From Folioceros fuciformis (taxonomy: Eukaryota), in assembly GCA_049999805.1 (NCBI GenBank), contig JBNGIO010006333.1:114802-154056 (forward strand): a stretch of 39,255 nt of DNA, given 5' to 3'. The notes under the pieces are model-generated. The model was not told where the DNA came from, did not search any database, and saw nothing but the letters and a program-made list of their open reading frames with translations. The position numbers and the translations under genes were made by a program. Of the stretch, positions 11,801 to 39,255 are shown piece by piece (position 1 is the first letter of the stretch; the number at the start of each line of letters is the position of its first letter).

Positions 11801-14800
11801 ACGGATAATGAGGAAAACTTCAGCAACGCTCTAATGGTGGGCATTGCGCAGTCCTTCTGAGTGTGTGGCCTGTTTGTTGCGTAGCAGAATGACTGAACCT
11901 ATGCCCTTGTTCTGGCCAGGTTTTCAGGTTTTTAATATCTTTTGCGGACGTCCTTGGCCTCTGGTCCTTCACGTTTGACGAACTCCTTCAGGCCTTCCAT
12001 GACTATGTGGGTCACTTTTCTAAACGGTTTCTTTTTGTTTCTACATGGTTTGTTTTTGTTTCTCTCGTTTAGAGTTCTTTCTTGTTGCGATGGACATCTC
12101 TTTCAGTTTTGCGATGCTGTGTACTTAATTATTCTATTTGTGTTTTTTAGGATCCACGACTGCTTGGTGACATTCATGTTGCCCTCTTGAGAACACTGGT
12201 TAAGGATGTTGAAGAAGCATCACAAGCAGCTGTCTCTGTTCCTGGGGGAAGTCAATATGCTTCCTTTGTCATATCAGGAGGTCATCCGGAAATTGTGGAG
12301 TCGGTGAGGATCCAACATACATGCTTTAGAGAGTAGTTTTGCGTNNNNNNNNNNNNNNNNNNNNNNNNNNNNNNNNNNNNNNNNNNNNNNNNNNNNNNNN
12401 NNNNNNNNNNNNNNNNNNNNNNNNNNNNNNNNNNNNNNNNNNNNACGTTAAGGTGAATGTTCCCTCGTTGCCACTTGTGCGTTCCTTTTACCTTTTGCTG
12501 CCTCTGCTTGTTCTCAGACTTGAATGTGTGCAACAGGTGACTGAAGGTGAAGATGTGGTCTCAACACTGCGGTCTGGTGCAGCGGCAGCAAATGCTGTTG
12601 CTTTAATGCAAGGAAAAGGGGTGGGCCAAGTACGTAGAAACCAGTACCGGATGACCCCTGGTACTGTGAAATTTGCTGCATTCCACATTTTGTCTCTCGA
12701 AGGAGACAAAGGTCTCAGTATTCCTCAGGTTGCTGATCTAATGCAGGTAATCGGTTGTTGTCAATAGGCTAGTAGCTGGGTTGAACTCTGTGTGCTACAA
12801 ATCGAGTGGCCATGGAGACTTAACTCCAGTCTCGTGCGTGGCTAACCTGTAGTTGCAGAGGCAGGTCGACTGAGGAGTGGATGGTGAGACTCAAATTTTC
12901 TGTGTGTGTGACATCGGGTGATGTGTTTTGCAGAAAACCGGCCTCCGAGATTTAAGCCTCAGCAGGACTCCAGAAGCATCCATAGCAGCAGCCTTATCAA
13001 GGGATGCGAATTTGTTTGAAAGAGTTGCCCCTTCTACGTACTGTGTGCGTCCTGCCTTTAGGAAAGATCCTGCAGATAGAGAACAGGTGCTCGATGCTGC
13101 AAGAGAAAAAATTGCCCTTTTCAAGAGTGGACAGCTAGAGGGAGAAGAAGCCGATAAGGAGGTCGAGGATCCAGAGGAAGGGGAGGAGGCTCTCAGAGAC
13201 GAGGAGTATGGCTTGGAAGAACATGAGGTTGATGATAAAGCCACCTACGCTGAACTCACTCCTGGAAAAGCCGAGTCTCCTTCGAAATCTGATAAGCCTA
13301 TGACTTTGGGTGACGGTGAGAAGAAGCTGCCAGTTCTTGTTGCCAGTGCCTTTGCTTTCTCTCCATCAAAAAATGACCATGTTGATTTCCTCATTCTGTG
13401 TGCAGATAATGATGCAGGAGAGAGAGATTTTCAGTCCCCAGAACACTTGGCCGCAGACAGAAACGTTTCATGTCCTTTGACAGGGGGAGTGAACAATGCC
13501 AAGCATGGAGGAGATATCAAGGACGGTGGCACTCGACCAGAGTGCACAAAACCTGAATTACCTTATGCTGAGACAGAGATAGATGAAAGCCAAGCTGGCG
13601 AGGCGTGGGTCCTGGGGTTGGCAGAAGGAGAGTATGGTGACCTTAGTGTTGAAGAACGTTTGAATGCGCTGGTGGCTCTTGTCAATGTTGTGAATGAGGG
13701 CACGACTATTCGTGTGGCTCTTGAGGTACGGCTCGTCCTGGTGTAACTTTACTGATGCGCATGTGTTAGTTGTATCCAAGGGTTTGCATTTAGTATGTCC
13801 AAATCGTGACAAATGTTTTGTCCTTGTGGCTAAACAGGATCGACTGGAATCAGCACAAGCTTTGAAGAGGCAGATGTGGGTTGAAGCCCAGCTGGACAGG
13901 CGGCGCTCAAAGGATGAGCCAACGAGGTTGCAAGTCCCTGGCACTGCTGGGGGCAAGGTAGAAGGAGCCAGTCCTAGTGGTGTGCTTGATGGTAGACACA
14001 GCAGCCCATTGTTGAGCTCGGACAGCAAACAGGATATTGCTCAACACGGGCTGCAAAATGCTGAAACCGGTGGGTTGAATGCTGGCGAGGGAAATGTTGT
14101 GATATCTGCAAAAAAACCTTCAGCAGGACAGGATTTGATAGCTGCTCAGGATGTTTCTGTGCCAGCGTTTGCACATCCATCTGAGAAGTCTCGGGCACAG
14201 TTGAAAGCAGACATAGGTCTTCGTGCAGAGGAGTTGTTTGTGTGCAGATCCGTGCCATTGGGTTTTGATCGCAGACGCAACAGATACTGGCAGTTTGTAA
14301 CTTCCAATGGTGGAGAGGATCCAGGATGTGCTAGGATCTATTTTGAGTCGGTTGATGGTCGCTGGGAAGTACTTAATACTGAGGAGGTAAGTTTGGTTCC
14401 TTTGGGTTGACATGGTTTTACTTCTGTTTTGTTTTTTCTCTACATACCTGGCAGGATGTTAAAATGTGGATTTGCATTTGGACAGTCACTGGATGCATTG
14501 ATGACATCACTGGACATAAGGGGATGCCGGGAATCCGGTTTACATCAAAGCCTTCTGAGGCTGGAGGGCTCAATACGTTCGGCGATGCGCAAGCAACAGA
14601 ATTTGCAAGGAGATGTCAAGGTGGAGACTCGAGTGGGTTGCCATGGTGAAGCTGAGACTGGTTCTAGGCATGAGCCCTCTGGAATTATTGCGTGCACAGC
14701 TGTTGATGGGAGTCCAGCAAGCGGTGTCTATGGACAAGATACTGATTTCTTGGACAGGAAGGCAGCCCTTTCTCTGGACCTGGGGAAGAATGAACACCAA

Positions 14801-17765: not shown

Positions 17766-20700
17766 TCACAAGAATGTTAACAGAATCCAAGAATGGATGA
17801 ACAGCCAGTAGATGATTAGCCCCAGCCGGACTGACGGCTGCTTCATCAGTAGTCTGCCCCCAGCAACACTGCAAACCAACACTCTTAATACTCGGAGAGA
17901 GAACAAGAAAAAGTAAGATTACACACAAGCAGCACGTAATCTCACCATAGTCCGTCGAGACGCTCTGCTATTGACCTCATCGCTCTTGGCGTGTATCTTG
18001 CCTTCGCAAGAGACTTATAGTCGTGCCCTGAGCAATCGTGAAACAGGGTTTATTTCAAAGCATGCTTTACAACAGAAACAAGCTAATATCTAACAGCAAA
18101 TTTCTCACACACAAGGAAACAAGACCTTTATCATCAAAGTTGTCCAACAGTTGTTCCTCCAAGTCCACCTCGACAATGACATCACTTGGGGGCACCTTCC
18201 GTGGGCCCCGCACGTGAGCAGCAGCTGCATTTCCAGCTGGAACTCGTTTGTTTCTTTGTCCCTGCAACAAGCAGTTCAAGGAACGATTAGGGACTTCAAG
18301 CACTTAGTTTTCTTGGATGCATGAAGTAAAGTATTACCAGGTCATCCATCTCAAGGGACTGCAAATCATCCATGGTTAAGGATGGACTCTGTTGAGGCTC
18401 CTTCGTCTGTAGTACTCCCTCCAAGGCAGCTTTTTCTGCTGCCAGGACTTGCAGCTCAGTTCTCAAATCTTGAAGCTGGCCATCTTTCTTTGTCATCTGC
18501 ACTCGCCATCCCTCCATTTGTGCACTGACTGTCTCCAGGAAGCTCTGGAGTTCACTTAAATCAGGTTGGATGTCTTGTTCATCACTTTTCATGCTGTGCA
18601 TTGACGGGCTTGTCAGATTAACTTGAGCTCCAGAAACACCCAACCTTTCTTGTGCTTTTGAGAGCATGCCCACCAATTCACCTTGGAGCTGCTCCAACCT
18701 TAAATTTTGCCCTGCCCGTAATGCCTGAACTTGGCTTTGATGCTTGTCCAACTCTCCCACAAGCCTGGCTATTTCAGCATCCCGCTTTTCCAGATCCGTC
18801 TGGAGACTTCCCAACAGCGCAACGAGCTCTTCTGACTGATGCAGCAGAACATTGAGATTCTTGTAGTTTGTATTAAGCTTAGATATAGCCTTTGAACGTG
18901 ATGCTTCAAGACTCTGCAAAGAGGCCTGCTTCTCACGCAAAACAGCTTCTAGTTCCTTAACACGTTGTGAAAGTGTGTCATTTTGTGATTCGGCCTCGCT
19001 CAGAGCTAGAATGTGTGCTTCCAGATCTGCACAAGAGGTATCACACATTAGATCTTCATAAACCACAAGGACTAGCAACCGTGCAGTTCTGAGCCGCATC
19101 TAGAGAAAGCAAGTCATACCTTCATCCTTGGAGGACAAGAGTTCGTGCAGAGCAGCCAGGTCCTCCTGAGCATTTCTAAGAGATTTGGCATCTTCAGTTG
19201 CTTTTCCCTCTGCAATTTGCAGCGTTGAACGCAGTGTCTGAAGCTCCTTGTCAAGTTCAACATTCCGTGACTCCAGGGCAAGCATTTTAACCTCATCCAT
19301 TTCCTTCTTGCTCAGCAAACTTTTCAGTGCGTCTTCAGATTGTGCCAGTCGCTGTCTAATGTTCCCACATTCCCTCTCTTTTTCTCCCAGAGCTTTCTTT
19401 GACAGAATTTGCACATCTTGCAACACTTGCTGCAACTGATCCCTCTCCTCTCCGAGGTCAGCAGTTACCCTTTTGTTGTCTGAAAGCTGTCGCTCCAGAG
19501 CAGATAGCTGACTTTGAAGGCCGACTATCTCAGAGTGCCGTTTTTTGAGGTCCTCTTGATGTATAGTCAGCTCTCTCTCCCTGACAGTCTTTGCCTGCTG
19601 CGCTGATCTACTGATGGCGTGCACCACCTCCACAAGCTCTTGACACTTTTTAGTCAGAGAGTTATCAACAAGAGGGACATTCCCAGATGGGAGAGGCTGA
19701 GCTTGAGAAGCACTCTGATCATTAATGGTTCCTTTTTCTGCCTGCAGAAGATTCAATTCCGCAACAGAGGAATTCAAGACGTCCAGCACCATGCTTAGAG
19801 AAGCCCTCAGAAACTGAACCTCATCATTGGTCTGATGTTTGAGCAATGTCTCTGTCTTCAGTCTGGCAAGCTCATTATGTTGAATTTCACTGAGAGCTCT
19901 TAATTCAATAATCTCAGAGCTGTAGTTATCTGCTTCAGACCGTGCTACATCTAGCTCTGCTATTCGAGCTGCCAAAGATGTACTCAGCTTCTCTACGTCC
20001 TGTTCAGATTCTCCCTTTGAGACCCTCAAAACAGTGTTCTCCTCCAACAGAGCTTGCGCAGCAGCTGTCTGCTCACTTAGCTGCAAAGCTATAGCTCTGT
20101 TTTCTAAAAGCAACGCCTGTTTCTCCTCCGACAGCACCTTAATCTTAAGGTTCAACTCTCTTAATGATACATCCTTCGACTGCAACTCCACAACATGGCG
20201 GGTAACAAGATTGTCCATCTGTGCATCTTTTGCAGCGACAGTGCGCTGCAGATTATCGTATTCTAGTTTCAATGCTTTGCCCTTCCTCACAGCCATGCTA
20301 AGTTTTTCCCTTGTTCCTGAGATCTTGTGCTCCATTTCAGTGACTTGTGCCCGTAACGAGCTTCTCTCACTCTCGGCTTCATCTAAGCTGTTCCTCATTT
20401 TCTGTGACTGTTGCGAAAAACCACTTATCTCCTCTTCCTGATGGGCCATGGTGGTGGCCGCTTCCTCAAGCCTAGCCGTCAAGTCACTTATCTCATTGTC
20501 CTTGTCATCAATAGCTTTCTGCAGGCTCTTTACGAACTGGTCACAAGCCTGTTGTCTCGATTCAAATTCAGTTAATTGCTGGATTTGCACCAGAACTTTC
20601 CTCTTCAGCTCCTCGTGTTGTTCCATCATATCTTCGTATACTCTGATAATTAAATTCGAGAGAGTGTCAAAGGTGGTGGGAAATGACACGATAGAGCCCA

Positions 20701-23700
20701 GTACTTCAGTGGACGAGGATCTTGGGAGAACTACTACAGTATTGGCGAAAAATGCTTCCAAGTCGGAACACATCTTGTCCCGACGAGCGATCTCAGCATC
20801 CAACTTTTCAGCAGCCAAGACCAGCTGATCCCGCAAACCAACTTCAGTAAATGCAGCTTGAGAAGCTTCTTCTGCCAAAACTGCCATTGCTCGCTTACTG
20901 TCTTGTAACTCGTTTCTCATGGAACCTCTTTCGACTTCAAACTCAGTAGTGAGAACCTTTTCTCTTTCATGAGCATTCTCCAACTGAAGTGTCACCAAAT
21001 TGGCAATCTCCTTAGCATTTTCAAGCTCTCTTGACATTGCCTCTGATCCCTCTTGGACAACTTCTAAAAAGCTGGTAACCCACTCAGCTTGAGACAGCAG
21101 GTTCTTTCCCGTCAGATCATCAGGCAATTTTGCCCTTTGAAAATGGACCATAACGCTTGCAAGTGAAGTAGCTTTCTGTAACTGCTGTTCGATAGTAGAA
21201 AGAGATGTGGTCGCCGCTTCAAGCTCCACTTCTAATGATTGTACTTGCTCTACTGCAGCGGCAAATTTTCTCTGCAGGTTCTCCACCTCTGCCTGCAAGT
21301 TGACAGTATGTTTGACCTGTTGAGCAGCGAATTCAGACCTGCTCTTTATCTGGATCAACAGCCCTTTAATCTCATCACTCTTCCCTGGGAACTCTGCAGT
21401 GCACCCAGTATCAAGTTGTGTGCCATCTTGCACAGGGAGGTTGTGAAAGTGCAGCATATCAAGGATATGCAGAAGCTCTTGTCTGAAAGCAACTTGCATC
21501 TCAACAAAAGCCATATCAAGAGCCCCCTTTGCTGTCATGCTCAATTCCAGGCCATGGATTTGACCCTTCAGGTCCACAAGCTCAGCCTGCAAACGTTCCC
21601 TTGATGTCACAATCTCATCCTTTTCAAGCCGCAGTGTCCTAGTCTGTTCCCCGGAAAGTCTTGCCATGCTTTGCAGCTCCTCATTTCTCAAGGTAGCCTG
21701 TGTGAGCTGTTCCTCCAAACTGCCATTCCATTCGCAAATTTGCTTGACGACCGCATGCAAAGCATCAATTCCGTATTCAGCTACAGATGATCCATTTGTC
21801 AAAAATTTTGGAGCCTCACGTAACTGAGCAACCAGTTCTTGACACACAGCTGAAACACGCGCCTCCATATTTTCAAGTGTTTTCAAGGAAGATTTGAGCC
21901 TGTCATCCTGCTCTTGACGTTTCAGCTGGACATCTTCCAGCTCCTCCTGGATTGCTTTCTTATCAGATAATAGCTGACTTATTTGTGTGGCAGATTGGAC
22001 TTGGAAAGCTTTGTATTCCTCAGCCACTGTCCTGACTTTCCTTTCCAAATTCGAGTTCTCCACCGTCAAACCTTGAATTTGACCTCTACAGTCAACAAGC
22101 TCAGATTGCAGGTGTTCATTCGATGTCACCAAGGCGTTGTTTTCAAGCTGCCATGTTCTAGACTGATCGTCCGCCGCTCTTACCAATCGTTGCGGGTCTT
22201 CATTTCTTGAGGCGAGATTACTATCACACATCTGCTTGATAATACCAAGCAATGCATGGAGTCTGCATTCAGCTCCTGATGATCCACCATTGAAAACCTC
22301 TGGAGCCGTATCTACTTTGCCAACCAGCTGTTGACACCACAACAAAACAGTTCCTTCAACAGTTTCAAGGGTTTTTACAAACGACTTGATCTTTTCATCC
22401 TGCTCTTGACATGTCAGCTGCATGGCATCCAACCTCTCCTGAATGGAGTCTTTTTCAGATTGTACACGACCCCTTTCCCTGACAGATTGTTCAAGAAGAG
22501 CTTTGTAATCCTCCGATATGGCACTGTGCTGGTTCTCCACATTTAAGTTCTCTGCTAACTGAGACCTTTCTTGATCTACCTCCTGTAATCTTCTAAGAGC
22601 TGCTTCCAGTTCCAAACGACAGTTCTGCTCTGCATTTATACTAGCATCTCGTTCACGTTTGAGTGAATCCACACTCTCTCTGAGGGCTGTAACCTGGCAA
22701 AATAGCTCAGATAACTGGACAGATCCAGCACGGACTGGTGGATCACTTTCAAGGTCCACATGATCAAACTGAAGAGCCTTGGTTTCAAATTCTTGTATCA
22801 GCTTCCCAACACATGATGCAAGTCTTACACTGGCATCAGCAGACTTTGCAGAAGGGCTTGCATCCAGACTTTCTGAAGGAAGCACCTGTCGTACGGCCTG
22901 CTCCAACTCCAGCGAGTTGGACTCTGTCCGTTGAATATGATCCTTTAGGCGTGTTGTGCACGCAGCTTCCCTAGCATTTTGATCCTGAATTTGGCCTTCC
23001 AGATATTGTATCTTTGCTCTGAATTCATCCCGTTCTTCATGTTGCTTTGATATCAGCTCCAGCATATGTTGCCGTAAATCCTGAAAAGCCTTATTCTCAT
23101 TATCTAATGACTCACGTGCCTGCACACGCACCGTGTTACTCTGGTTGTCGTCCCCATAATTCAGCTCCCGAAATTCATTGCACAGAGAATCTAATTCCGC
23201 TATCCAATGAGCTCTGTTTTGTCCCATTGCCTCTGTTTGTCTCTGAAGACCATCTCTGGCCTCTATGGTAGCCAACAACTGCCGGTGCAATCCTGCTAAC
23301 TCCTCTTCCAGCTCGGCCTTAGTTTGCACCACACCGTCACATGCACTTCTTGCTGCCGCAAACTGGCCTCTGAGATTGGAATTTTCATCCTTTAGTTCTT
23401 CTATGACCCGTTCAACCTTCAATAGTTCGCACATAAGCCGGTCCCTCTCATCTGAGAGATCCTTGAGCTGCAGGGTGAGCAACTGTAGATTAGAGCCCCT
23501 GCAACCGGTTTCTTCTTCCAGTTTGCTCAAAGCAACATCCCTGACCTCTAATTCGGACAGCAGCCTAGACACTTCGGCTGTCAACAACTTCTTCGCTTCT
23601 TGCAAGTCAAAAATTTGAGCCTGTGCGGCTTGTAGCTGACCCGCCAGCAGTGTTTTCTCTGATAGCAAGCTTTGGTTCTCTCCTGACAGAGTTTCCATCC

Positions 23701-25263
23701 GAGCCCCCTCGGAGACACTTTCTTGCATTCGATGTTCTAGTTCTTTCTCCATAAGCGATTTACTGTCAGTAACTTCTGCCAATGACTGTTTGCAAGCAAT
23801 AACCTCCTGGACAATAGCTGCTCTCTGAACTCGTAGATCCTCAACTTCGGTGACAAGCTCCTTGTTCTTGTCGGTTTGGTCCTTCAATGACACCTGCGCT
23901 CTTTCGAGTTCAGCTGATAGTTGCGCTTTGTCCTGCAGTTCATTGCTCAGGTTCCCCCTAACGGAGGCAAGTTCATACGTTATAAGAGACTTGATGCCCT
24001 CAGTTTCGCTAAGTTGTTGCTTCAGTAAATGGAGTTGTGTTTCCATAGCTGCTTTCTCTCTGGTCATTTCAGTGTGTTCCTGCTGCAAATGCTCAAACTG
24101 ATAGGAAGCTGCTTCGAGTTCGTCTGAGAGACGACTGTTTGCCTGCTCAAGACTAGTGACATGAACGTGAGATTTAGCAAGGTCATCTGCTTGAATGGAC
24201 GCAGCTTCCTGGAATTTTAGAAGCTCCTGCTTCATGTTCTCTAAACTCGAACACAGAAGCGACTTTGAATGCTCCATTTCGAGAAACCTTTCCTTTGTCA
24301 CAGCAAGCTCTCTGCCCAGGAGCTGATTCTCTTCCACGGAATTGTGGAGTTCAGCTTCAAGCTTGCTAGCCTTTGTGCAAGCTTCGGCTTTCTCCTCGTA
24401 GGAGCTTTCCAGCTGCTGCTTGCAGACACAGAGATCAAGCCGCAGCTGCTCAGCTTCATCATTTGATGCTTGAACCATAATCCTAAGCTTTGCACCTTCT
24501 TCGTGGGACATGTCCAGCTTCCGAGTCAAGTCATCCAGCTGAGCCTTATCCTCTGCTGTCCTTTGGGCAGCTGCTACCGCATTAGCTGAAATAACTGCCT
24601 GCCGTTCATCGCATTCAGTAACCTTGTCCTGTAGTGATCCTTGTGTAGATGACAATTGGGATCTCAACTCCTGTATCTCCTTCACCAGGCTGTCTTTAAG
24701 ATGGATGGACTCATCCAGGTGCAGCTTCAGACTATTGCAGTCTTTGTCATGCTCTTCGCTGTGCGCCTCTACCTGTTCGTCCCTCGAAAGCCCCTGCAGG
24801 TTCAGAGCACAGCCCCCAGTTACGCTTGCAAAAGTGGTGGCATGTAATCGGCAGCATCAATCAAGCTTTCAGTTAGGGAGTATCACCTGAAAAAATCTTA
24901 CCTCCGTCATGCCTTCATGGCCACTCTGGGTGGGCACATCCCGTGGCTCACACCTAAACATCTCAGTGTCCATAGGCGGCAGAGACACGTCACTGGTTGC
25001 AACAGGAGCTGGGTCTCCCACATCCTGTTGCTCTTGCGCCTCGCTGTTATTGCCCTTGCCCGTGCCAGTTTCCGCGGCCTTGCCTGTGCTTGACTTCTGT
25101 TGGCGCGTCTTGCGGAACTGCTCCAGCTGGTGCACATAGAAACCACCGGCATGAACAAGGACGAAGCACGCTCCAGCAAAAGGTATCGAATGACTGAACA
25201 TGTTGCCCATACCCGCTTCTTTCCAGCTGCTCGCATCTCGTCCTTCGAGTTCGTCTTGTCCAT
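17766..25263 (-). CDS. Very long coiled-coil, C-terminally tail-anchored protein (~2,300 aa), golgin-like, TNO1 (TGN SYP41-interacting)/At4g31570-like family; 7 coding exons including a 5,674-nt exon (19120-24793)
   Basis: ATG at 25263: MDKTNSKDEMRAAGKKR|LEQFRKTRQQK; continuous heptad-rich E/Q/L/K sequence; TREKLSMAVRKGK motif; C-terminus DDK|GHDYKSL..RYTPR..ERLDGL|CVAGGRLLMKQPSVRLGLIIYWLFIHSWILLTFL* (terminal TM helix); consistent GT-AG phases. Family assignment is from recall of motifs. Confidence 0.85.
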
Positions 25264-28842: not shown

Positions 28843-30353
28843 AATGCGACGGGAGATCATCACGGAATCGGAGCCGGTGAAGGAGGAGGAGGGACGTGGT
28901 CCCTGCTCGCCCAAGGATGAGGCAAGTGTTACACCTCCCCACACGTTGCCGCATCAAGAAGTAACGCAACCGGGTTCGTATTTGTAGAATTCCAACATTT
29001 TGAGAAATAGCACCACTTTATGGCTTTACCCACCTGTACGGCAGTATGTGAATAATTTAATATGGACTTTGTTTTATGGAAATCAATACCTTCCAGTGAC
29101 GGGAATGCGTCAAATACAAAAACCAAAACTATATATGTTTTGACGCATTTTAATTTACGTACACCAAACCGATTTAAGGCGGGAAATTCGTCCTTAGGGC
29201 TTTCAATCTAACCCCGGTCCAGACCTTTAAAATATTAATGGGTGGTGCTAGCCATTTCAATGACCACACATTTCAGTCATGTTTAGAAAATGGGGCTGGT
29301 CAGCTTTAGATATTAATGGATGATGCCAATCAAATAAGATATTTTATCCAACTTGTAACATATCCAACTCTTATCTATTTTCAAGTTTTGATTCAACTTA
29401 ACCCAACTTGCTATTTGCTATGTATAGCATTGGCTATTCTCTTTCATAGTTGTTAATTCATGGTTGCTTGCAACTATTATCAAGAGAGATCATGTTTTTG
29501 TTGTAGATGTTGTGAGCTTGTGTGAACACATACAGATAAGCTGACGAGGAATTAGGACTTAGACAGTCGTGCTCATTCATGAACAGTGGTGTCTCTTAGA
29601 GACTTGATCTCTCATATATGCTCTCAGAGCATTACCCTGTATTGTTTGTGATACAATCAACACACAGAATACAATTTCCAGTCTCGCCATTCTCAGTTTA
29701 ACACATGGTATCAAAGCATGGAATGGATCCATGACTCCGGTAGCCTACGATGGCTACTCTTCCTTCCACACAAGGAAGACATTATCAGATAGAAAAATTA
29801 ACTCATTAGAACTATGGGACATGGTCCATATGGGTGGAATCTCTCCTCAAAAAGTTGATGCTATGGCCCATGGTCGACGGGTATGAGCCTAGACTAGCCA
29901 AGAATCATGCAAACGAACCTGCTTGGATCATCAAGGATGCCTCTGCCCATGCTAAGCTCATCCTATAGATATGAGACAAAATCCTACCTACTATGAGACG
30001 ACAACTTGATGCTAAATCCTTATGAGACAAGCTGGCGGCATCGTTGCAGGAGGTAAGTTTACCATCACAACTCCTTGCTGCTCAAAAGCTTGCCTCCATC
30101 AAACTCAAGGACGAAGGATCAGTCTCGGATTTCGTAGTTATTTGGGATAAGTCGTTAGACAAGGCCATCTCCACAGGACTTGACTTGAAGGAGGAACAGC
30201 AGGTCACACAATTACTGATGGCCCTCCCAAAATCTTGGAGGTCATTTATCTCTAGAGAAGCCAATCAGGCTACCAAACAAAGATCACTAACCTTAGCAAG
30301 TCTCTTAATGAAAATCCGCAACGAAGATGTCTTGATTGTAGGAGACAACTCTC

Positions 30354-30395
30354 CTCCTTCAACTCTCTTTGCAGCTCCTTCAACTCTCTTTGCAG
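30354..30395 (+). repeat. 21-bp in-frame tandem duplication in element A gag
   Basis: ctccttcaactctctttgcag x2 (PSTLFA-A-PSTLFA). Confidence 0.85.
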
Positions 30396-32212
30396 GTGGA
30401 CGGGGCAAGAACCCTAGATTCAAAGCTAGATCTAGAAATTTTGGCTTTGCTTCCGGTCCTGGTAGACCACCACCTTCCAACAATCCTAATCACGAAGACA
30501 AAACATGTCACTATTGCGGTAAGAGAGGGCATATAGCCCCAAACTGTAGAAAGAAACAAAGGGATAAAGCAAGAAGTACTTCTAGCACATTTGTTACCAC
30601 CACTTCCACAAATGCTTACCTCTTCACTGCTATCTCCACCTTGGCTACAAGTTCCATCCTTCCAGATCACTGGCTGCTTGACTCAGGAGTGACGAAACAC
30701 ATGACCTCGCAAGAAGAATGGTTCACGGACTACTCACTACTTGAGGTATCCCTACTCGTCCTCATGGGAGACGACTCTCCTCACATGGCTGTGGGCAAGG
30801 TCACCATTCAACTCCAGGTGCATGACTTTACAGCTTGTGTGAGGGATGTCCTACACGTCCCCGAGCTGTCCAAGAATTTGCTCTCTATGAATTAGACAAT
30901 CCGAAATCCTAGGTGTAGCATCATCTTCAACCAACATGGGTGCGTTAACCACACTACCACCTCTGCAGGCTAGAACATGTCGATCCATTGCCCTCGTACA
31001 CGGGGACTCTTGCCCGTGGGGATTGGAGTTTCTCTCCTGCCCAACCCACAAGTGTAAGCCTTGCTACTCACCTCCATCACAGTTCCCTAACAACACTTTG
31101 GCACTTGAGGCTAGCTAGCCCACTTACTCTTCCAAGGCATAAAACGCATGCAATCCAAACGAATGGTTTACGGATTACCTCATCGGTTTCATGCTGACCT
31201 GTCTTTATGTGAAGGTTGCTTGATGGGCAAGCAGAACACACAGCCATATCCTAGATCAACAAGTACCACAAAAAGCGTTTTAGCATTAGTGCATGCTGAC
31301 CTTTGTGGCCCCCATGTAGACAGAATCTCTTAATGGAAAGCTGCACATGTTTGTCCTTGTGGATGATTATAGACACTACACCCACCTTTATGTCCTCAAG
31401 CATAAATCTGAAGCATTTACTTCCTTTCAACTCTATAAAGCCCTGGTGGAAAATCAAATTGGTAAGCGCATCCAAATACTTAGGACAGACAATGCAGGTA
31501 AACTTACCTCACCTGCCTTTGAGAACTTCTTGTCTACACACGGCATAGCCTATCAAAAAATTATGCCTTATGCACATCAACAATTAGGGAAAGCGAAGCA
31601 TAGGAATTGCTCCCTCATGGATGCAACCAGAAGCTCCCTAGTCACGGCAAGTCTACCCAATACCTTGTGGGCTAATTCTGCTGCTGCGGTTTGTTACATT
31701 CAAAATCGATGCGGCACCACTACTATCCTCGACAAGACACCCTTCGAAATCTAGACAAGCCACAAACCATAGGTCAGCCACTTAAGAATTTTTGGTTGTC
31801 CTACCTGCAAACATGTTCCAATAGAAGGACGCCGCAAATTGGACTCCATATTTGTCAAACTCACTTTTATCGGTTATGGGGAAAGCATAGGAATTAAAGG
31901 CTATAGACTTATGGATCGAGCCACACGCCGAATTTCCGTAAGTCGAAATGTCGTGTTTAATGAGAATTCCCTCATCTAGACTTCAGGGGGTGTACAACTT
32001 CCTAACCAAGATACAGAGAGAATATCGGCTCCGGATTTCCTCCCTGACACCTCCAAGGCAGGCTTGCTTCAGAACCCTATAGCCCCTGCTCAACAAGCTC
32101 TAGATTCTCCTCCTATAGTGCCGCCAACACCTGTTTTATAGACTCCGGAAGATCCTACTATATCTGACTATGGTGAATTTGACCTAGATTGGCAGGCCAG
32201 CCTTGTGGTAGG

Positions 32213-32386
32213 TGTTGAATAGATAACTATCTTGGGTTAAATATACCTAGTTAATTAGGTTAAATACATTATACTATAAATACTCTTGGTACTTCATGTT
32301 TCATTTAATTATTCATGTTTTTCATATTCCTCCTATGCACAAGCATACGTTACTATCAAACTATCGATGCTCTATGGATCGGATCA
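32213..32386 (+). repeat. 5' LTR of copia element B
   Basis: TG...CA ends, TATAAA inside, followed directly by the PBS; 12 mismatches to the 3' LTR by manual alignment. Confidence 0.95.
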
Positions 32387-32432
32387 TGGTATCAGAGCTT
32401 GATGCCATGTACTGATTTTTGTTTCTTGTGCA

Positions 32433-33053
32433 ATGCCTCGCAGGAAGGAATCACGTGCACCACCTCCATTGCGTGATGTTTTTCCACGCAACTGAATAGG
32501 ATTGCGGTGGATTCCACCAATGTGTGACGGGCCATGGGATCAATACTTTGATGAGTATCGCACCCAGATCCGTGCACATTGGTATAGGCAAGCACAAGAA
32601 TGAAGATAGTACCACAATCAATTGAGAGACAATCATTATGATAGAAATTTGCAGAGAAATCCAAGAACCCGAAGGGATCCATCAATTGATGATAATCTGC
32701 AGAATTCTAAGTTGAAGGAAAAGTTTCTAAACTTGGATGAAGCGATTTCAGATGAGGAGAATAATGATGATGTTCCAGATTCAGACAAACCACTGTCGAA
32801 ATTGATTCATTACCATTACGGTAGAATTGACAATCACATCTCACAGTTGATTGCAAGACAAGACCTGTTTCTCACAGCTTTACACAACATGGAGAAGAGA
32901 ATGCAGCATGGAATGGATCAGTGCAACAAGGACATCAACACTGGTGTGTCAGCTACTCAAAATCTGATCCAGTTATTTCTACAGTATTCTGATGTAAAGT
33001 TGATACAAAAATTGGGTAAATCAGGGCAGAGCCCTGCAGATCCTGTTCTTTGA
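32433..33053 (+). pseudogene. Extra ORF ('ORF0') upstream of gag in element B, ~206 codons, three in-frame stops
   Basis: ATG 32433: MPRRKESRAPPPLRDVFPRN*IGLRWIPPMCDGPWDQYFDEYRTQIRAHWYRQAQE*R*YHNQLRDNHYDRN... continues in frame into the 32622-33053 ORF; the stops are TGA, TGA and TAG, each one C>T change from CGA or CAG. Confidence 0.7.
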
Positions 33054-33460
33054 AATCCGGAACCTGTGGAGGGGGCCATTGGAGAGACGCGCAGCAATTT
33101 GGTGTCCACTTCTATCACACTGGAGCAGTAAATTGTGTGATTGTGTCATCAGATCAGATACGTTCTATGTACAACTCATCCAATTTCATCTTTGCTCCCA
33201 CTTGACAGTTGAGCGGTTATTTCCCCTGCCACCTGAGCATCACAAGAACACCCTCATTAGATTTTAGGGCACGTTTCAAAATTTAGGTCAGTTTTTCTTG
33301 ATTAGTTTTTTAGGGCATTTTTCACAATAGTTTTCGACAATTACTCTAGATATGAACCAACAAACATAGTCCTATGCACCTCCTTCGTAGCTGTCTGTAA
33401 ACACTCTTCCTTGTAGCATTCTTACAGCCCCTTTGCGCACTTGATATCCTGCATTTCACC

Positions 33461-36400
33461 ATGTCAACTCCCTCATTTACGTCTAACATAAAGGATAAAG
33501 ACTGCATTAATGGAACGAGATTTGACATTTGGAAGGTTCGCATGAAAACTACCTTGGTAGCTCGTGGCATCTGGACTGTTGTTGATGGTTCCTACAAGGA
33601 TCCTGGTGTACCTGGTGCAACAGGAGTTCCTACAACTGTCACTCAAGCTGACAAGGACAAATGGCATGGCTTTAATAGCATTGTCATTGCTCTCTTGGTT
33701 AACGGCTTGGATGTTGACCGCATTCCTGAAACTGAATACTTGGTTAATGCCAAGGATATATGGGACCAATTGTCAAACACTTACAAGGTTCAGAATATGA
33801 TGACTCTTTGCGCAGTTCGCCTTGAACTCTACAGCCTGCGCATGAGAGATGGTGAATCTGAGTCACATCATATTAGCCAGTTTCGACGTTTGCGATCCCA
33901 ACTAAACGCACTTAGAAGTCCTATGACTGAGGCTAACGCAGCGGCACAGTTTCTGGTCAGCCTCCCCACAAGCTATCAAACTTTTGTTACCACTCAAAAT
34001 ATGCCTACTACTCTTCCTGGACAATCCCTACCAGCTGGTGCTCCAACTCCTTCGCTGGAGGCTGTGGTGGGAGCACTATACTAAGAAGAACAAACACGAT
34101 TTATGAGAGGGCAGCAAAAGCAACATAAAACTGACAAAGTTTTCTCTGCAACTCGATGCAGAGGCAGAGGAAGGGGAAGACATCCGAATCAACGTGCTGG
34201 CTTTGGTTCTTACATACCTAGCAACACTGGTTCATCTTCCTCTGCTCTGAAACGACAAGGTACATGCAATTGGTGTGGTACTCCAGGGCATTGGGCACGG
34301 GAATGCCGGGAAAAGAAAGCTGGCGAGCCTCAATGGGTTTCTTCTCGACCCTCTGCACATACAATCACACAACAATGTAGTCAGGACAGACAGTCCTCAA
34401 CAACATCCACAAATTTAGGCAAGCCAGTAGTTAAAATCCTTATTGTTTGTCTTAACACTTTAACGAGTGAGGGGGATTGTTGGTTTTTGGACTCAGGGGC
34501 AACATCCCATATCTGTTGGGCTGAATCTCTCTTTACCAGTTTGACCCTATGAGCTGTTGCTGAAAATGTATACTTGGGTGATGAGAGTTTAGGGCGTAGT
34601 ATTCAGATCCTTGGTAGAGGAATCTGCAAGTTTCCCTTACACAATGATAGCGTGTTAGTCCTCCCAGACGCCTTGTATGTACCTAAGATGGCTAAGAATT
34701 TAATGTCACTTAGCAGGTTGATGAAAATGAAGGATTTAGTCCTTACTGTCTCTGGAGACGCTTGTTGTTTCTCTAGACATAGTGCCCCAGCCATATGCAT
34801 CTTCAAAGCTTTTGTAGATTCAAAATTGTATCGTCTTGACATTTCTTGCCTCCGACGACAACAAGCATGTTCCACCACAGTTGGTAACCTAACAGCTATC
34901 CTCAAGCTAGGCTTTGGCACGCACGCTTGGGCCATGCTAACAAAACTAAATTGATTCATGCATCTAAGCAAGACTGTTATCGTGAACTTCTCCCTCACTG
35001 TTTCAAGGAGCTGCCCATTTGTGAAGTGTGCACCCTTGCAAAGCAACGAGAGACTCCTTTTCCACGGGCACCTGCACATAGGTCAACATCAATCCTCGAC
35101 CTTGTGCACTCAGACATATCAAGCAGGCTACAGATTCAGTCACTTGGAGGTGCAGCCTACTTTCTTACTTTAAGAGATGACTATAGCTGGTATACGTGGA
35201 CATACCCGATGCACCATAAGAATGATACATTCCCCATCTTCAAGGATTGGTTGATCATGGTGCAGCGCCAAATTGGTCGTTTGTTAAAGCTCTTCAGGAG
35301 TGACAATGGCGGTGAATTTGTCAACCATGCCTTCATAGAGTTCCTGACCAGCCAAGGCATTATTCATCAACTCATCGTCCCATATACCCTGCAGCAAAAC
35401 GGGGTGGCTGAACGAAAGAATCAAACATTGATGAGAATGACGAGGTCAATGCTCTTGTGGTCAGGATTACCTTCTCCATACTGGGCAGAAGTAGTAGTGA
35501 CAGCTACATATATACTCAACACGCTCATATCACAGTCGGTTCCTAGAAACACGCCTTTCGAGATATTATGGAAGAGAAAACCAATCATCATGCATCTTCG
35601 CGTATTTGGTTCGAGAGCTTTTGCATATATACCTGTTGAGAAGAGGCGTAAACTTGACAACCGTTCAAAGGGGTTAATATTTGTTGGTTACAGCGAGATT
35701 GCTAAGGCTTACAAACTTATTGATGCAGACAATCTACAACCTAGTATAGCGAGGAGTGTGACTTTCCTGGAGACACTCGAGCCACTAGTCACAGGTGGTG
35801 GCATATTATTCGAACAACATGATGGTCATTTGGCATTTACAGACAAACATGATGATTACCCTGATGACATTGATGGAGATGTTGCCCCAGCTATTCAGTC
35901 AGAAGATGATGAATCCACTGTAGATCCTACTCCAGCTCCAGACAATCACTTAGATTCAGCATATGAACCTGACAGTTCTTCCCAAGACCTGATTCTGCAG
36001 GTGACAATGAGCCATTACCTGTTCCAGTAGTGAATGCACCTGAGCATGTTCGTCGGTCTACACGTGTGCATCGTCCTGCCTCTGAGTGGACAGAACCTCG
36101 TTACACATCCATCGATTTTCGCAAGTTAGTGGGAGTCTGCACTCCCACTATCCACCATGTTTCCCCACCAGTTATTCCTCATGAGCCTGTCACACTCAAG
36201 GAAGCCATCTCAAGCCCAAATAGGGATAAGTGGAAATATGTTGTGGAAGATGAGTACAATAGCTTAATTCAAAATGGTACCTGGAAGTTGGTTCCCCGTC
36301 CTGAAGGCTGCAGACCCATTACATGCAAATGGGTTTTCAAACACAAACTTAACTCTAAGGGGGAGATTGCCAAGTATAAGGCTTGTTTGTGTGCCCGAGG

Positions 36401-37781
36401 GTTTACCCAAATTCCAAGCCTAGACTTCCAGGAGACATTCTCCCCTGTAGTCAGATCCCACTTTATCCGCCTCATTCTTGCTCTAGCAGCTGAACATGAC
36501 CTGGAGCTTGAGCAAATGGACGTCAAGACTGCTTTCTTACATGGTGTTTTAGAGGAAGAGTTGTATATGGAGCAGACCGAGGGCTACGAGGACCCTACAC
36601 ATCCAGATTGGGTTTGCCAATTAATCAAGTGTATTTATGGCTTGAGACAATCTGCGGAACGATGGAATGCTAGACTAGACACTTGCTTGCGTGCACTTGG
36701 TTTTCGACAGAGTCTTGCTGATCCATCAGTTTATATCTATGATGAAGGCTCCTCCTATGTGTTTGTTGGCAATATATGTAGACGATGCCATATTTGCAGC
36801 CAACAACAAACAACTATTAGCAAAAGTTCAAGCTTTGTTACGTAATGAATTTGAAATGACTAATGTTGGTGAGTTGAAGTTCTGCCTGGGCATTCAAGTG
36901 CTGCGAGTGAGAGAGCAGTGAATGATTATTATTCATCAACACGAATACATTGCTGAAATTCTGCAACAATTCAACGTGGATGCAACTCACCCTGCTCCCA
37001 CACCTGGAGCAACTGGTGTGCGACTCACAAAACTGGATAGTCCCACCTCATCTATGGATATCGAAGATATGAAGGATGTCCCGTATAGACATGCTATGGG
37101 AAGCCTCCTATTTGTGAGCAATTGGACATGTCTTGATATCACGTTTGCAGTGAACACTGCTTCTCAATTCTTGGAATGTCATGGGGAAATCATTGGATAG
37201 CAGTTACACGGGTATTCTGTTACTTCAAGGGTACACATTACTTGGGCCTATGTTACAAGCGAGGAGGTTCACACCCTACCTTACATGGTTTCGCTGATGC
37301 TGACTGGGCATCTGATGGCAATTCATGTCAAAGCCTTTCGACCTATGCATTCCTTCTATCCTCCGCTACTATTGGTTGGAGCTGTAAAAAACAAACAAGT
37401 ATAGCTCATTCAAGCACAGAGGCAGAATACAAATGCTTAACTGATGCTACTAAAGAGGTGGAGTGGGAGAGGGCCTTTCTAGCTTCAGTCCATGTAACGC
37501 AGCCAGAACCTACCATCCTCTTTTGCGACAATCAGTCTACTCTTGCCCTTGTTGAGCGTCCCCGCTTCCACGCCCGTACCGAACACATCGAGATCCAGCA
37601 CCATTACGTTCGAGATGTAAAATCGAGAGGTATTGTTCTGCCCACTTACATACATAGAGATTCTAACGTTGCTGACATTCTCACAAAATCCTTGCCTAAG
37701 CACAAGCATCAGACACATGTAGATGGCTTGGGTCTTGTAGATTTCTCATCACACTTTACTGCAACACTGAAGCTTACATGA
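33461..37781 (+). pseudogene. gag-pol polyprotein of copia element B, with stops and frameshifts
   Basis: NGTRFDIWKVRM gag start; CNWCGTPGHWAREC; WFLDSGATSH protease; WHARLGH...CEVC; integrase LVHSD, FRSDNGGEF, QQNGVAERKN; RT QMDVKTAFLHG, YGLRQS, YVDD; RNase H FADADWA, TEAEY, CDNQS, ADILTK. Stops at 34082, 34550 and 36919 plus several frameshifts. Confidence 0.95.
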
Positions 37782-38067
37782 TTAGCAGACCTAGAGTATC
37801 TCAAACAATTCTAGCTTCTACTCTGTGGTTTTCTCCCTCATGTCTCCTCCTACCTGCATACGTGTACATTACATTCAGGCACGTGTCTATTTCAGTCACC
37901 TATCCAACTTTGTTTGCTTTCCCCATGCACACTCTGTCCCCTTTCAGTGGGAGTCAGCATAGGCCAAACAAGCTATTAATTTCCATGCATTCAGAGGATG
38001 AAGCCAAACACCGATCTAACCCTGGAACATGGAATCACTTGAATCACAGACAGTGTTACCTCTAGAG

Positions 38068-38541
38068 TCACGCGCCTCTTTCTTTCTTTGGCATGTACAA
38101 TCCTAGAGCAGACAGTTCCCTTAGCAGGTCTTTGTATTCGTCCACTGTCAGCTGCTTGTCGTCCTCCCTCATCTCTACTCCTGCCCCGGCCTGTTCCTTG
38201 AGTTGGGCTATGCGAGCCTGGGCTTCCTCCAGCAGCCCCTCCAACCTACTGCACTCAACATCTGCCCAAGCTAGGTTCAACAACGTGCGCCTGCAGGCCG
38301 TGGTTGGCCATATCTTCTGTGAAGTTGTGAGACTGCTTGAACCCTGGAATTCTTCTTTCAGGCTTTGGCTTCTGTTCTCCAGTTGCTTCTGGCTTGATAG
38401 CCTATAGCTCACAGATTTGATCATGCTGAGCATGAGCCTTACAATTGATGGCGCTGCAAGGAAGGTAATGGCTGTAATTTCCAGCAATAAGAGGGATAGG
38501 GCGAACCACGCAATAGGATTGTCACTTATGTCTCTACCCAT
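38068..38541 (-). CDS. Antisense extra ORF of element B: N-terminal transmembrane helix + coiled coil (157 aa from ATG 38541), function unknown
   Basis: MGRDISDNPIAWFALSLLLLEITAITFLAAPSIVRLMLSMI... ...ECSRLEGLLEEAQARIAQLKEQ...DEYKDLLRELSALG; uninterrupted; lies between the pol stop and the PPT. Confidence 0.6.
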   Translation of the reverse strand: MGRDISDNPIAWFALSLLLLEITAITFLAAPSIVRLMLSMIKSVSYRLSSQKQLENRSQSLKEEFQGSSSLTTSQKIWPTTACRRTLLNLAWADVECSRLEGLLEEAQARIAQLKEQAGAGVEMREDDKQLTVDEYKDLLRELSALGLYMPKKERGA

Positions 38542-38638
38542 TGCGAGGAATGGGAATTTGAAGCGCCGTGGCAACCTAGGGTTTACTGCATAAGATTTAA
38601 ATAGCTTTTCACTTTAACCCGTTGAGGTTAAGTAGGAG

Positions 38639-38812
38639 TATTGAATAGATAACCGTCTCGGGTTAAATATACGTAGTTAATTAGGTTAAATACGTTATAC
38701 TATAAATACTCTTGGTACTTCATGTTTCATTTAATTATTTATGTTTTTCATATTCCTCCTGTTCACAAGCATACGTCACTATCAAACTACCCATGCTCTA
38801 TGGATCGGATCA
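38639..38812 (+). repeat. 3' LTR of copia element B
   Basis: Begins TATTGAAT (TG mutated to TA), ends GGATCA; colinear with the 5' LTR with no indels. Confidence 0.95.
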
Positions 38813-38865
38813 GCAGGACCTGCTACAATCGTAACTCCTGCGAATTAGCCCATTGCTAGAGGTGC

Positions 38866-38967
38866 GATGCCCCTCACAGCTTCACCTCCACAGCCCGGCT
38901 TTATTGCACCTCTACAGATGCCCCTCACAGCTTCACCTCCACAGCCCGGCTTTATTGCACCTCTACA
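38866..38967 (+). repeat. Perfect 51-bp (17-codon) tandem duplication in the IN-RT linker of element A
   Basis: gatgcccctcacagcttcacctccacagcccggctttattgcacctctaca x2 (MPLTASPPQPGFIAPLQ x2). Confidence 0.92.
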
Positions 38968-39255
38968 AACCAGCAGCTCTCCAACGAATCCTCAATTCCC
39001 TTTCATCACAACCACCACCTTGGCCCCCTAGGGATCATGTGTCTTGCCCTCCTCGGTCCCGCCTTTCATTCCATGAGGCTTTGGAAAATTCCATCACACC
39101 AATTAGGGCTCCTTCACATTTAGGTATCCCGGGAATTCCAGCCCTCACTTCTCCTCAGTCTGCTGTCCTTGCAGGATTGCTTCCTTCCTTGCAGCTCACA
39201 AGGGGAGAGGGTAGGGAAGACCACAACAATGACCTGCAATTCCACTCGCAAGGTT

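Follow-up and report, generated by a model that had tools for sequence, protein, structure and literature searches.

We analysed a stretch of 39,255 nucleotides (nt) from Folioceros fuciformis (GCA_049999805.1, contig JBNGIO010006333.1, positions 114,802 to 154,056 of the forward strand); the whole stretch is called the window here, and positions are counted from its first letter. At 32213-38812 the window holds a long terminal repeat (LTR) retrotransposon of 6.6 kb, including 1.9 kb of extra interior, in which gag-pol is preceded by a leader containing an open reading frame (ORF), named ORF0, and followed by a spacer containing an ORF on the antisense strand (Table 1). The reading we lean towards is that it is an old copy, no longer active, and belongs to a low-copy Ty1/copia family with a long leader and 3′ spacer and, likely, an ORF0 gene.

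The borders and the order of domains identify the element. A repeat finder returned the direct-repeat pair 32212-32386 and 38638-38812, which after trimming to TG...CA ends gives two LTRs of 174 nt. The pair differs at 12 of 174 positions (9 transitions, 3 transversions; 93.1% identity; Kimura two-parameter distance 0.073), and the 3′ LTR opens with TA rather than TG. At an often-quoted plant rate of 1.3e-8 substitutions per site per year, which is possibly wrong for the host here, this divergence places the insertion roughly 3 million years ago. The flanking 5-mers agree in four of five letters, so that the Ty1/copia combination of two direct TG...CA LTRs and a 5-bp target-site duplication is present. 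Directly adjoining the 5′ LTR is TGGTATCAGAGC, which we take to be complementary to the 3′ end of initiator tRNA-Met, making it a candidate primer binding site (PBS); no tRNA gene was found within the window. A purine-rich run (12 of 15 letters) stands directly ahead of the 3′ LTR. Pfam matches occurred in 6 of the 13 scanned frames, every one a piece of gag-pol, in the order Retrotran_gag_2, zf-CCHC, Pol_BBD, gag_pre-integrs, rve, SH3_retrovirus and RVT_2. Integrase lies ahead of reverse transcriptase (RT), which is the copia order, and the GAG-PROT-INT-RT succession of Ty1/copia is present with the exception of a recognisable RNase H: the last 214 residues of pol had no Pfam match, even at E up to 1, and no match among PDB sequences, and RNase H is presumed at the C-terminus of pol from its position.

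The gag ATG at 33461 is 1,062 nt past the PBS, with 23 ATG triplets ahead of it in the leader, and the pol stop (37779-37781) is 857 nt ahead of the 3′ LTR. These distances bear out the long spacers that an earlier reading, made from the sequence alone (the sequence-only reading), had described. That reading had also called the element complete, which holds for its structure (LTRs, target-site duplication, PBS, a run resembling a polypurine tract, copia order) but not for its coding capacity, broken by three stops and four frame changes, nor for RNase H. No tandem array was found inside the element or its spacers, and no Rfam family matched in 32000-39255.

Table 1. Features of the retrotransposon and its borders in the window, with strand and the basis of each assignment.
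Feature	Position	Strand	Basis
Left target-site duplication, GTAGG	32208..32212	.	4/5 match to right 5-mer
5′ LTR, 174 nt, TG...CA, TATAAATA box near 32277	32213..32386	+	repeat pair, motif
Putative primer binding site, TGGTATCAGAGC	32387..32398	+	abuts 5′ LTR
Possible upstream part of ORF0, ATG start, stops at 32493, 32601 and 32607	32433..32609	+	same frame
ORF0 stop-free frame, 147 codons	32610..33053	+	codon usage, between-copy differences, structure prediction
Remaining leader, without coding signal	33054..33460	+	codon score
gag and start of protease; in-frame stops at 34082 and 34550	33461..34552	+	Pfam, translation
Retrotran_gag_2	33542-34003	+	Pfam
Zinc knuckle	34262-34309	+	Pfam
Protease-type domain, Pol_BBD, DSG motif visible in translation	34481..34726	+	Pfam, translation
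Integrase (gag_pre-integrs, rve, SH3_retrovirus), frame change at both ends	34888..36030	+	Pfam
Reverse transcriptase, RVT_2 across two frames, one frame change, stop at 36919	35973..36921	+	Pfam
C-terminal pol, presumed RNase H, frame change near 37137-37200	36922..37781	+	position only
Part of 3′ spacer without ORF signal	37782..38067	.	codon score
Antisense ORF, 157 residues	38068..38541	-	ORF listing; stop-free frame extends to 38613
Run resembling a polypurine tract, 12/15 purines	38624..38638	+	composition
3′ LTR, 174 nt	38639..38812	+	repeat pair
Right target-site duplication, GCAGG	38813..38817	.	4/5 match to left 5-mer

Other copies in the organism were viewed through contigs of public sequencing runs, compared with 32000-39000 at 80% likeness. 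Two DNA runs from a single sample, X1 and X2, contain 0.81 and 0.75 of the words of the stretch. X3, a further DNA run from this sample, is strongly enriched over 32000-39000 in C>T (316) and G>A (523) differences and looks like a bisulfite-converted library; rows backed by X3 alone were left out of the count. One possible RNA run under the same species label, X4, gave two contigs, less than 90% alike, on RT and RNase H only, which have no bearing on expression. The comparison between copies rests on 40 of 1,938 letter differences, 12 of 76 insertions or deletions (indels) and 15 of 24 joints, as ranked by the search program. An empty-site joint, present in two contigs in each of X1 and X2, runs from 32207 to 38813 and skips 6,605 nt, the length of the element plus one 5-mer. 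This joint confirms the borders of the element and fits a 5-bp target duplication; the empty site is either a paralog of the older element into which this one inserted (described below) or an allele.

The copy in the window is dead, its gag-pol coding capacity having been lost after insertion. The polyprotein is split into eight reading-frame pieces by the in-frame stops at 34082, 34550 and 36919 and by frame changes near 34888-34954, 35973-36030, 36679-36845 and 37137-37200. Contigs of other copies differ at four of these seven lesions, namely the stops at 34550 and 36919 and two of the frame changes (near 35988 and near 37185), and these four are private to this copy. Relative to it, 16 of the 17 gag-pol rows shown are non-synonymous, mostly at places where nearly all contigs disagree with it, and they are mostly private damage of this copy. 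Since the copy is dead, any biology sits in its paralogs.

Two diverged contigs reach into the spacers of such paralogs. One, 534 nt long, aligns with 32498-33054 and departs from it in 73 letters plus 28 gap letters; the other, 1,240 nt long, aligns with 37394-37833 (55 other letters) and 37918-38638 (98 other letters) and ends at the start of the 3′ LTR. Identity between copies is ~84-90% in the spacers (about 86% in both contigs) versus ~83-90% on gag, integrase and RNase H, and no part of the element stands out as better kept. Because diverged contigs of other copies cover them, both spacers are features of the family and not private to this copy. Among the indels (12 of 76) and joints (15 of 24) visible, four structural differences concern the 3′ spacer: one skips 300 nt, one puts 74 letters in place of an 84-nt block, and two are deletions of 4 nt and 2 nt. 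All four fall in 37749-38048, outside the antisense ORF, which is a weak sign in favour of that ORF. Separately, one contig each in X1 and X2 has 14 other letters in place of 130 nt around the gag start (33418-33549), so that at least one other copy is without the gag start region.

Whether the spacers encode proteins was judged from frame length, codon usage, differences between copies and predicted structure. For length we used 2,000 first-order Markov sequences per spacer. For codon usage we used a log-odds score trained either on the host ORFs of the window (host model) or on its copia ORFs (element model), with a null of 400 stop-free frames of at least 100 codons drawn from 936 second-order Markov simulations. 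Real pieces that were left out of training score -0.01 to 0.34 under the host model and 0.04-0.17 under the element model; the host model draws mainly on a single coiled-coil gene of 1,918 codons and favours helix-rich frames.

ORF0 carries several independent signs of former coding, namely its codon usage, a private stop, synonymous differences and a confident predicted helix, and it is probably a real gene of the active family. Its codon score in frame is 0.26 under the host model and 0.18 under the element model, exceeding 400 of 400 null frames under both, and the other five frames are negative. G+C content by codon position (0.48/0.27/0.40) is close to that of gag-pol. The stop at 32607, just upstream of the stop-free frame, is private to this copy: 4-5 contigs belonging to other copies have a sense codon in its place. 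The remaining five of the six ORF0 differences shown (32615, 32669, 32702, 32711 and 32732, with X1 or X2 support) are all synonymous and at the third position; given that 35% of the G and C letters of the frame are at third positions, the nominal chance of five out of five is ~0.005. The product has an N-terminal part that is first basic and then acidic, followed by a long predicted helix: AlphaFold, run without an alignment, predicts residues 60-126 to be helical, 42 residues reaching a predicted local distance difference test (pLDDT) score of at least 90, with a mean pLDDT of 68. A stop-free run at least as long as ORF0 arises in the simulated spacers at p = 0.038.

A number of observations weigh against ORF0 as a gene. 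It has no usable start in this copy, as the first in-frame ATG of the stop-free frame is at 32889 and extending the frame upstream to the ATG at 32433 (or 32520) crosses the stops at 32493, 32601 and 32607. Two of these, 32493 and 32601, come in addition to the stop private to this copy, and the upstream 59 codons do not have a coding-like codon score. The sample of synonymous differences is tiny and was ranked by the program (40 of 1,938 rows shown). C>T or G>A, changes that X3 also produces, account for four of the five, which may explain their high rank. The 28 gap letters of one other copy, lying somewhere in 32498-33054, are not a multiple of three. Finally, neither ORF0 nor the antisense ORF has a relative in any library searched; the protein and DNA libraries were mostly microbial, and word-based searches are insensitive. 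For ORF0 there was no relative in Pfam or among PDB sequences and no match of its model in Foldseek against PDB; the word-indexed protein search gave 7 candidates at near lengths and 316 at longer lengths, none of which scored; 90 pattern matches in metagenome contigs and 8 in viral contigs were not confirmed; and the best score in the Atlas, 0.77, is at chance level.

Two artefactual origins were considered for the ORFs of both spacers and set aside. Diverged copies of gag or pieces of neighbouring genes are not indicated, as tblastn across the window finds only the ORFs themselves (next best E = 0.42 and 1.1), and a tandem-repeat artefact is not indicated either, there being no array inside the element.

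The antisense ORF gives a more mixed picture. It is intact, starts with an ATG that has G at -3 and G at +4, and encodes 157 residues within a stop-free frame of 181 codons. Runs of at least 181 stop-free codons occur in the simulated spacers at p = 0.0055 and ATG-started ORFs of at least 157 residues at p = 0.005. Its product opens with MGRDIS, in which the R after G departs from the PROSITE myristoylation pattern, and is hydrophobic over about residues 10-40 (Kyte-Doolittle mean over 19 residues of up to 2.14). By codon score it is the best of the six frames, and its host-model score of 0.128 is reached by 0.7% of null frames. On the other side, its element-model score of 0.003 is reached by 57% of null frames, its G+C content at third positions (GC3) is 0.58 versus 0.40-0.42 in gag-pol, and AlphaFold predicts the remainder of the protein as helical with low confidence (mean pLDDT 53). 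Another copy has 6 gap letters somewhere in 37918-38638. At the lesion density of this copy (7 lesions in 4.3 kb), a 474-nt frame is expected to be intact in ~46% of cases, and the open frame is therefore no evidence of selection. On the antisense strand, simple patterns for TATA and AATAAA gave nothing useful in the vicinity of the ORF. Pfam held no relative, and the word-indexed search gave 121 candidates, none of which scored; the Atlas had no usable match, PDB sequences had none, and 221 pattern matches in metagenome contigs and 3 in viral contigs were not confirmed. The only HMMER match among 1.84 billion representatives, a 653-residue tandem-repeat protein aligned in 7 stretches over query residues 49-93, was rejected as an artefact of composition and repeats. 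Altogether, that the antisense ORF is a gene is possible but doubtful.

The sequence-only reading had stated that both spacers hold protein-like ORFs and that the element has a three-gene layout. For ORF0 the protein-like character stands on codon usage and fails on the start; for the antisense ORF it stands in that the frame is open and longer than chance, and fails in that its codon usage is not element-like. Of the layout, the anatomy, the two long spacers shared by other copies and at least one likely extra gene were upheld, while an antisense gene is possible but doubtful. This is a copia family with likely at least one extra gene, and the three-gene claim is supported in part.

Extra ORFs in LTR retrotransposons are already known as a phenomenon, and the studied element joins the copia order with a gypsy-like extra-ORF layout. 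In the available sections of a survey of plant elements, extra ORFs (eORFs) are catalogued in all four positions and orientations, copia included; those of at least 250 codons occur in 582 copia and 3,372 gypsy elements, the copia eORFs forming 45 groups, and the table by lineage, as available, gives copia eORFs only for Bianca, Ikeros and SIRE (PMC6317226). Both ORF0 and the antisense ORF are shorter than that 250-codon threshold. In common bean, 63 of 65 copia families are without an extra ORF, and the two exceptions are sense and env-like (PMC4093653). Antisense ORFs after pol are known from the gypsy elements Grande, RIRE2, Retand and PvRetro13 (PMC7264820; PMC4093653). We found no copia element with this layout in the literature, within a coverage that ends short of the per-element REXdb table, which may hold such elements.

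The element resembles the short-LTR, tRNA-Met-primed copia lineages Ale, Alesia, Ivana, Tork and Lyco, with which it shares a 5-bp target-site duplication, what we take to be a tRNA-Met-type PBS, short LTRs and the order GAG-PROT-INT-RT-RH, the last member being presumed here. According to the available part of the survey, however, those lineages average 4.75-5.4 kb, have an interior filled by the polyprotein and have no eORFs listed, in contrast to 6.6 kb here (PMC6317226). The family is set apart from ordinary short-LTR copia by its leader of ~1.06 kb and its 3′ spacer of ~0.86 kb. If the PBS matches the full 3′ end of the tRNA, as we assume, this argues against the half-tRNA-Met groups Bryco and Osser. 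SIRE (Sirevirus) likewise has copia order with an extra ORF after pol, but the available sections describe its eORF as sense (74% 3′ forward, 1% 3′ reverse) in elements averaging 9.9 kb (PMC6317226), whereas the long frame here is antisense. A sense env-like ORF of the SIRE kind was not found after pol, where the longest sense frame has 113-121 codons and negative codon scores.

Outside copia, the layout is analogous to that of the gypsy elements Tat/Ogre/Retand, Grande, RIRE2 and PvRetro13, among which an ORF before gag and an antisense ORF after pol occur, encoding orphan proteins. A 5′ forward eORF is given for 21% of Ogre elements and an antisense ORF after pol for 60% of Ogre and 86% of Retand elements in the available sections of the survey (PMC6317226). 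Those elements have the order RT-RH-INT, an extra RNase H, lengths of 9-15 kb and ORFs of several hundred codons; the one here has copia order, ORFs of ~150 codons and no sequence similarity to them. Membership in gypsy Tat/Ogre/Retand was rejected, as integrase precedes RT. Another orphan ORF0, that of rice Retrosat2, belongs to a gypsy element. It similarly lies between the 5′ LTR and the retrotransposase, with Retrosat2 LTRs of >3.2 kb versus 174 nt here (PMC3485330; PMC4093653). In the Drosophila MDG1 group of gypsy elements (412, mdg1, Stalker), small ORFs in a long leader, sORF1 and sORF2, precede gag and have been shown to be translated, one of them encoding a short membrane protein that opens with MGxxxS/T and has a single hydrophobic helix (PMC11952523). 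The antisense ORF here likewise has an MGRDIS start and one hydrophobic helix. The MDG1-group ORFs are sense, from insect gypsy elements, and sORF2 has ~70 residues, whereas the membrane ORF here is antisense, has 157 residues and comes from a plant-like host; all candidates in the available part of that study are forward-oriented (PMC11952523). The resemblance to sORF2/FAST-like proteins is incomplete in that the start and the helix are present, the polybasic stretch is weak, with 3 of the 11 residues past the helix being basic, and the orientation is antisense.

The signs of coding in ORF0 can be set against the view that neither ORF is a gene, with the leader and the 3′ untranslated region (UTR) simply long, serving in packaging, dimerisation or as regulatory RNA, or being junk, and the frames produced by chance and composition. 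This view agrees with the lack of relatives, with an ORF0 that has no start and a length at only p = 0.038, with a gap total in another copy that is not a multiple of three, and with a between-copy identity of 84-90% in spacers and gag-pol alike; the available sections of the plant survey also describe eORFs as heterogeneous and doubt their function (PMC6317226). We consider it somewhat unlikely, however, in light of an ORF0 codon score over all 400 null frames in two models, the five of five visible differences that are synonymous, the stop private to this copy, and the length of the antisense ORF (p = 0.005). Codon usage of the latter could instead point to pieces of host genes, captured by transduction before the family spread in one or both spacers, which would be coding-like and without a role for the element. 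The antisense ORF scores host-like (0.128, within the top 0.7% of the null) rather than element-like (0.003) and exceeds the rest in G+C content (GC3 0.58), and gene capture by plant LTR retrotransposons is documented (PMC7264820). Yet the host model, being dominated by one coiled-coil gene, favours any helix-rich frame, and no similar protein was found in the 1.84 billion representatives, the one spurious repeat protein aside, or elsewhere in the window. Captured genes are also usually sense and in one or few copies (PMC7264820), whereas the region here is common to other copies, and capture appears quite improbable.

The opposite extreme is the full three-gene layout, with two genuine accessory genes, a sense ORF0 and an antisense membrane-protein gene that has its own promoter. 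All the coding signs of ORF0 speak for it, as do the intact antisense ORF with its ATG in good context, its length (p = 0.005) and its rank as best of six frames; the antisense region is kept in other copies at ~86%, against ~87% in the neighbouring RNase H region, and antisense ORFs between pol and the 3′ LTR are established in several plant gypsy families (PMC7264820). Its antisense half is weakened by codon usage unlike that of the element, a fold model of low confidence, the lack of relatives and a simple pattern search that returned no promoter or poly(A) motif, and we judge the complete layout unlikely. A still more specific version, in which a coiled-coil ORF0 protein, translated first from the genomic RNA, would be joined by an antisense, N-terminally anchored small membrane protein (MGxxxS, one transmembrane helix, helical tail) recalling FAST/sORF2-like proteins, is very improbable. 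If true, it would be the first FAST/sORF2-like case in copia and in a plant lineage. Membrane proteins of the FAST/sORF2-like kind let envelope-less insect retrotransposons pass between cells.

Under the reading we prefer, a dead copy of a copia family with a likely ORF0 gene, the leader of active members would encode a small orphan protein with a basic/acidic N-terminal part and one long helix. Genomic RNA would start in the 5′ LTR, where a TATAAATA box is present near 32277, and ORF0 would be its first cistron. The 23 ATG triplets ahead of the gag ATG put gag out of reach for plain scanning, and if ORF0 is translated, gag-pol would need reinitiation, internal entry or a spliced leader. ORF0 could then set the level of gag-pol output, assist the RNA or particles of the element itself, or do both. 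The antisense ORF, if real, would encode a small protein that spans the membrane once. Its antisense transcript would begin between 38542 and the 3′ LTR and would need a promoter of its own, either within the 97 nt that separate the ATG of the ORF from the 3′ LTR or inside the LTR; such a promoter arrangement for an antisense ORF has been shown for gene23 of maize Grande (PMC7264820). Alternatively, the antisense RNA itself could dampen the element, an effect that has been discussed (PMC7264820), or the conserved 3′ spacer may otherwise act as an RNA or cis element.

Plant LTR retrotransposons commonly carry extra ORFs, hardly any of which has a known role, and the copia examples described are mainly from SIRE. 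Where the 1-kb leader of a short-LTR copia element likely holds a coding ORF, the question arises how gag is translated behind 23 upstream ATGs, and the family, with ORFs of ~150 codons and few copies, is a small and tractable case for accessory-protein function. With a dead copy, one sequence and fragments of paralogs as its basis, the case is a lead rather than a result.

The element is nested in an older, distantly related copia element, to which it has 39.6% amino-acid identity over 187 integrase residues; the insertion point is the integrase-RT linker of the older element. The latter spans 29706-32207 and resumes after 38813, with Pfam-supported frames for gag, protease and integrase up to ~32132. 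It has a PBS-like TGGTATCAAAGC at 29706, with one mismatch, and its gag begins less than ~100 nt beyond, so that it shows the ordinary copia layout, unlike the 1,062-nt leader of the studied element. The older element is itself broken into several frames. Just past the 3′ LTR, within the older element, a 51-nt unit is present twice in tandem at 38866-38967 (2.0 copies at 100% identity); one contig each in X1 and X2 skips 47 nt there (38913->38961), and the copy number may vary.

The window as a whole is from a plant-like nuclear genome. It contains split genes with DUF707, thioredoxin, Fe-superoxide dismutase, homeodomain plus HARE-HTH, WHIM1 and WSD matches. Assembly gaps of exactly 100 N lie at 1365-1464 and 12345-12444, one of them within the region of the homeodomain/HARE-HTH/WHIM1 gene. 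On the minus strand, 18296-24856 contains a 1,918-codon open frame and 267 more codons beyond one stop; its product is rich in coiled coil, had no Pfam match over threshold, and is presumably that of a host gene with a giant exon.

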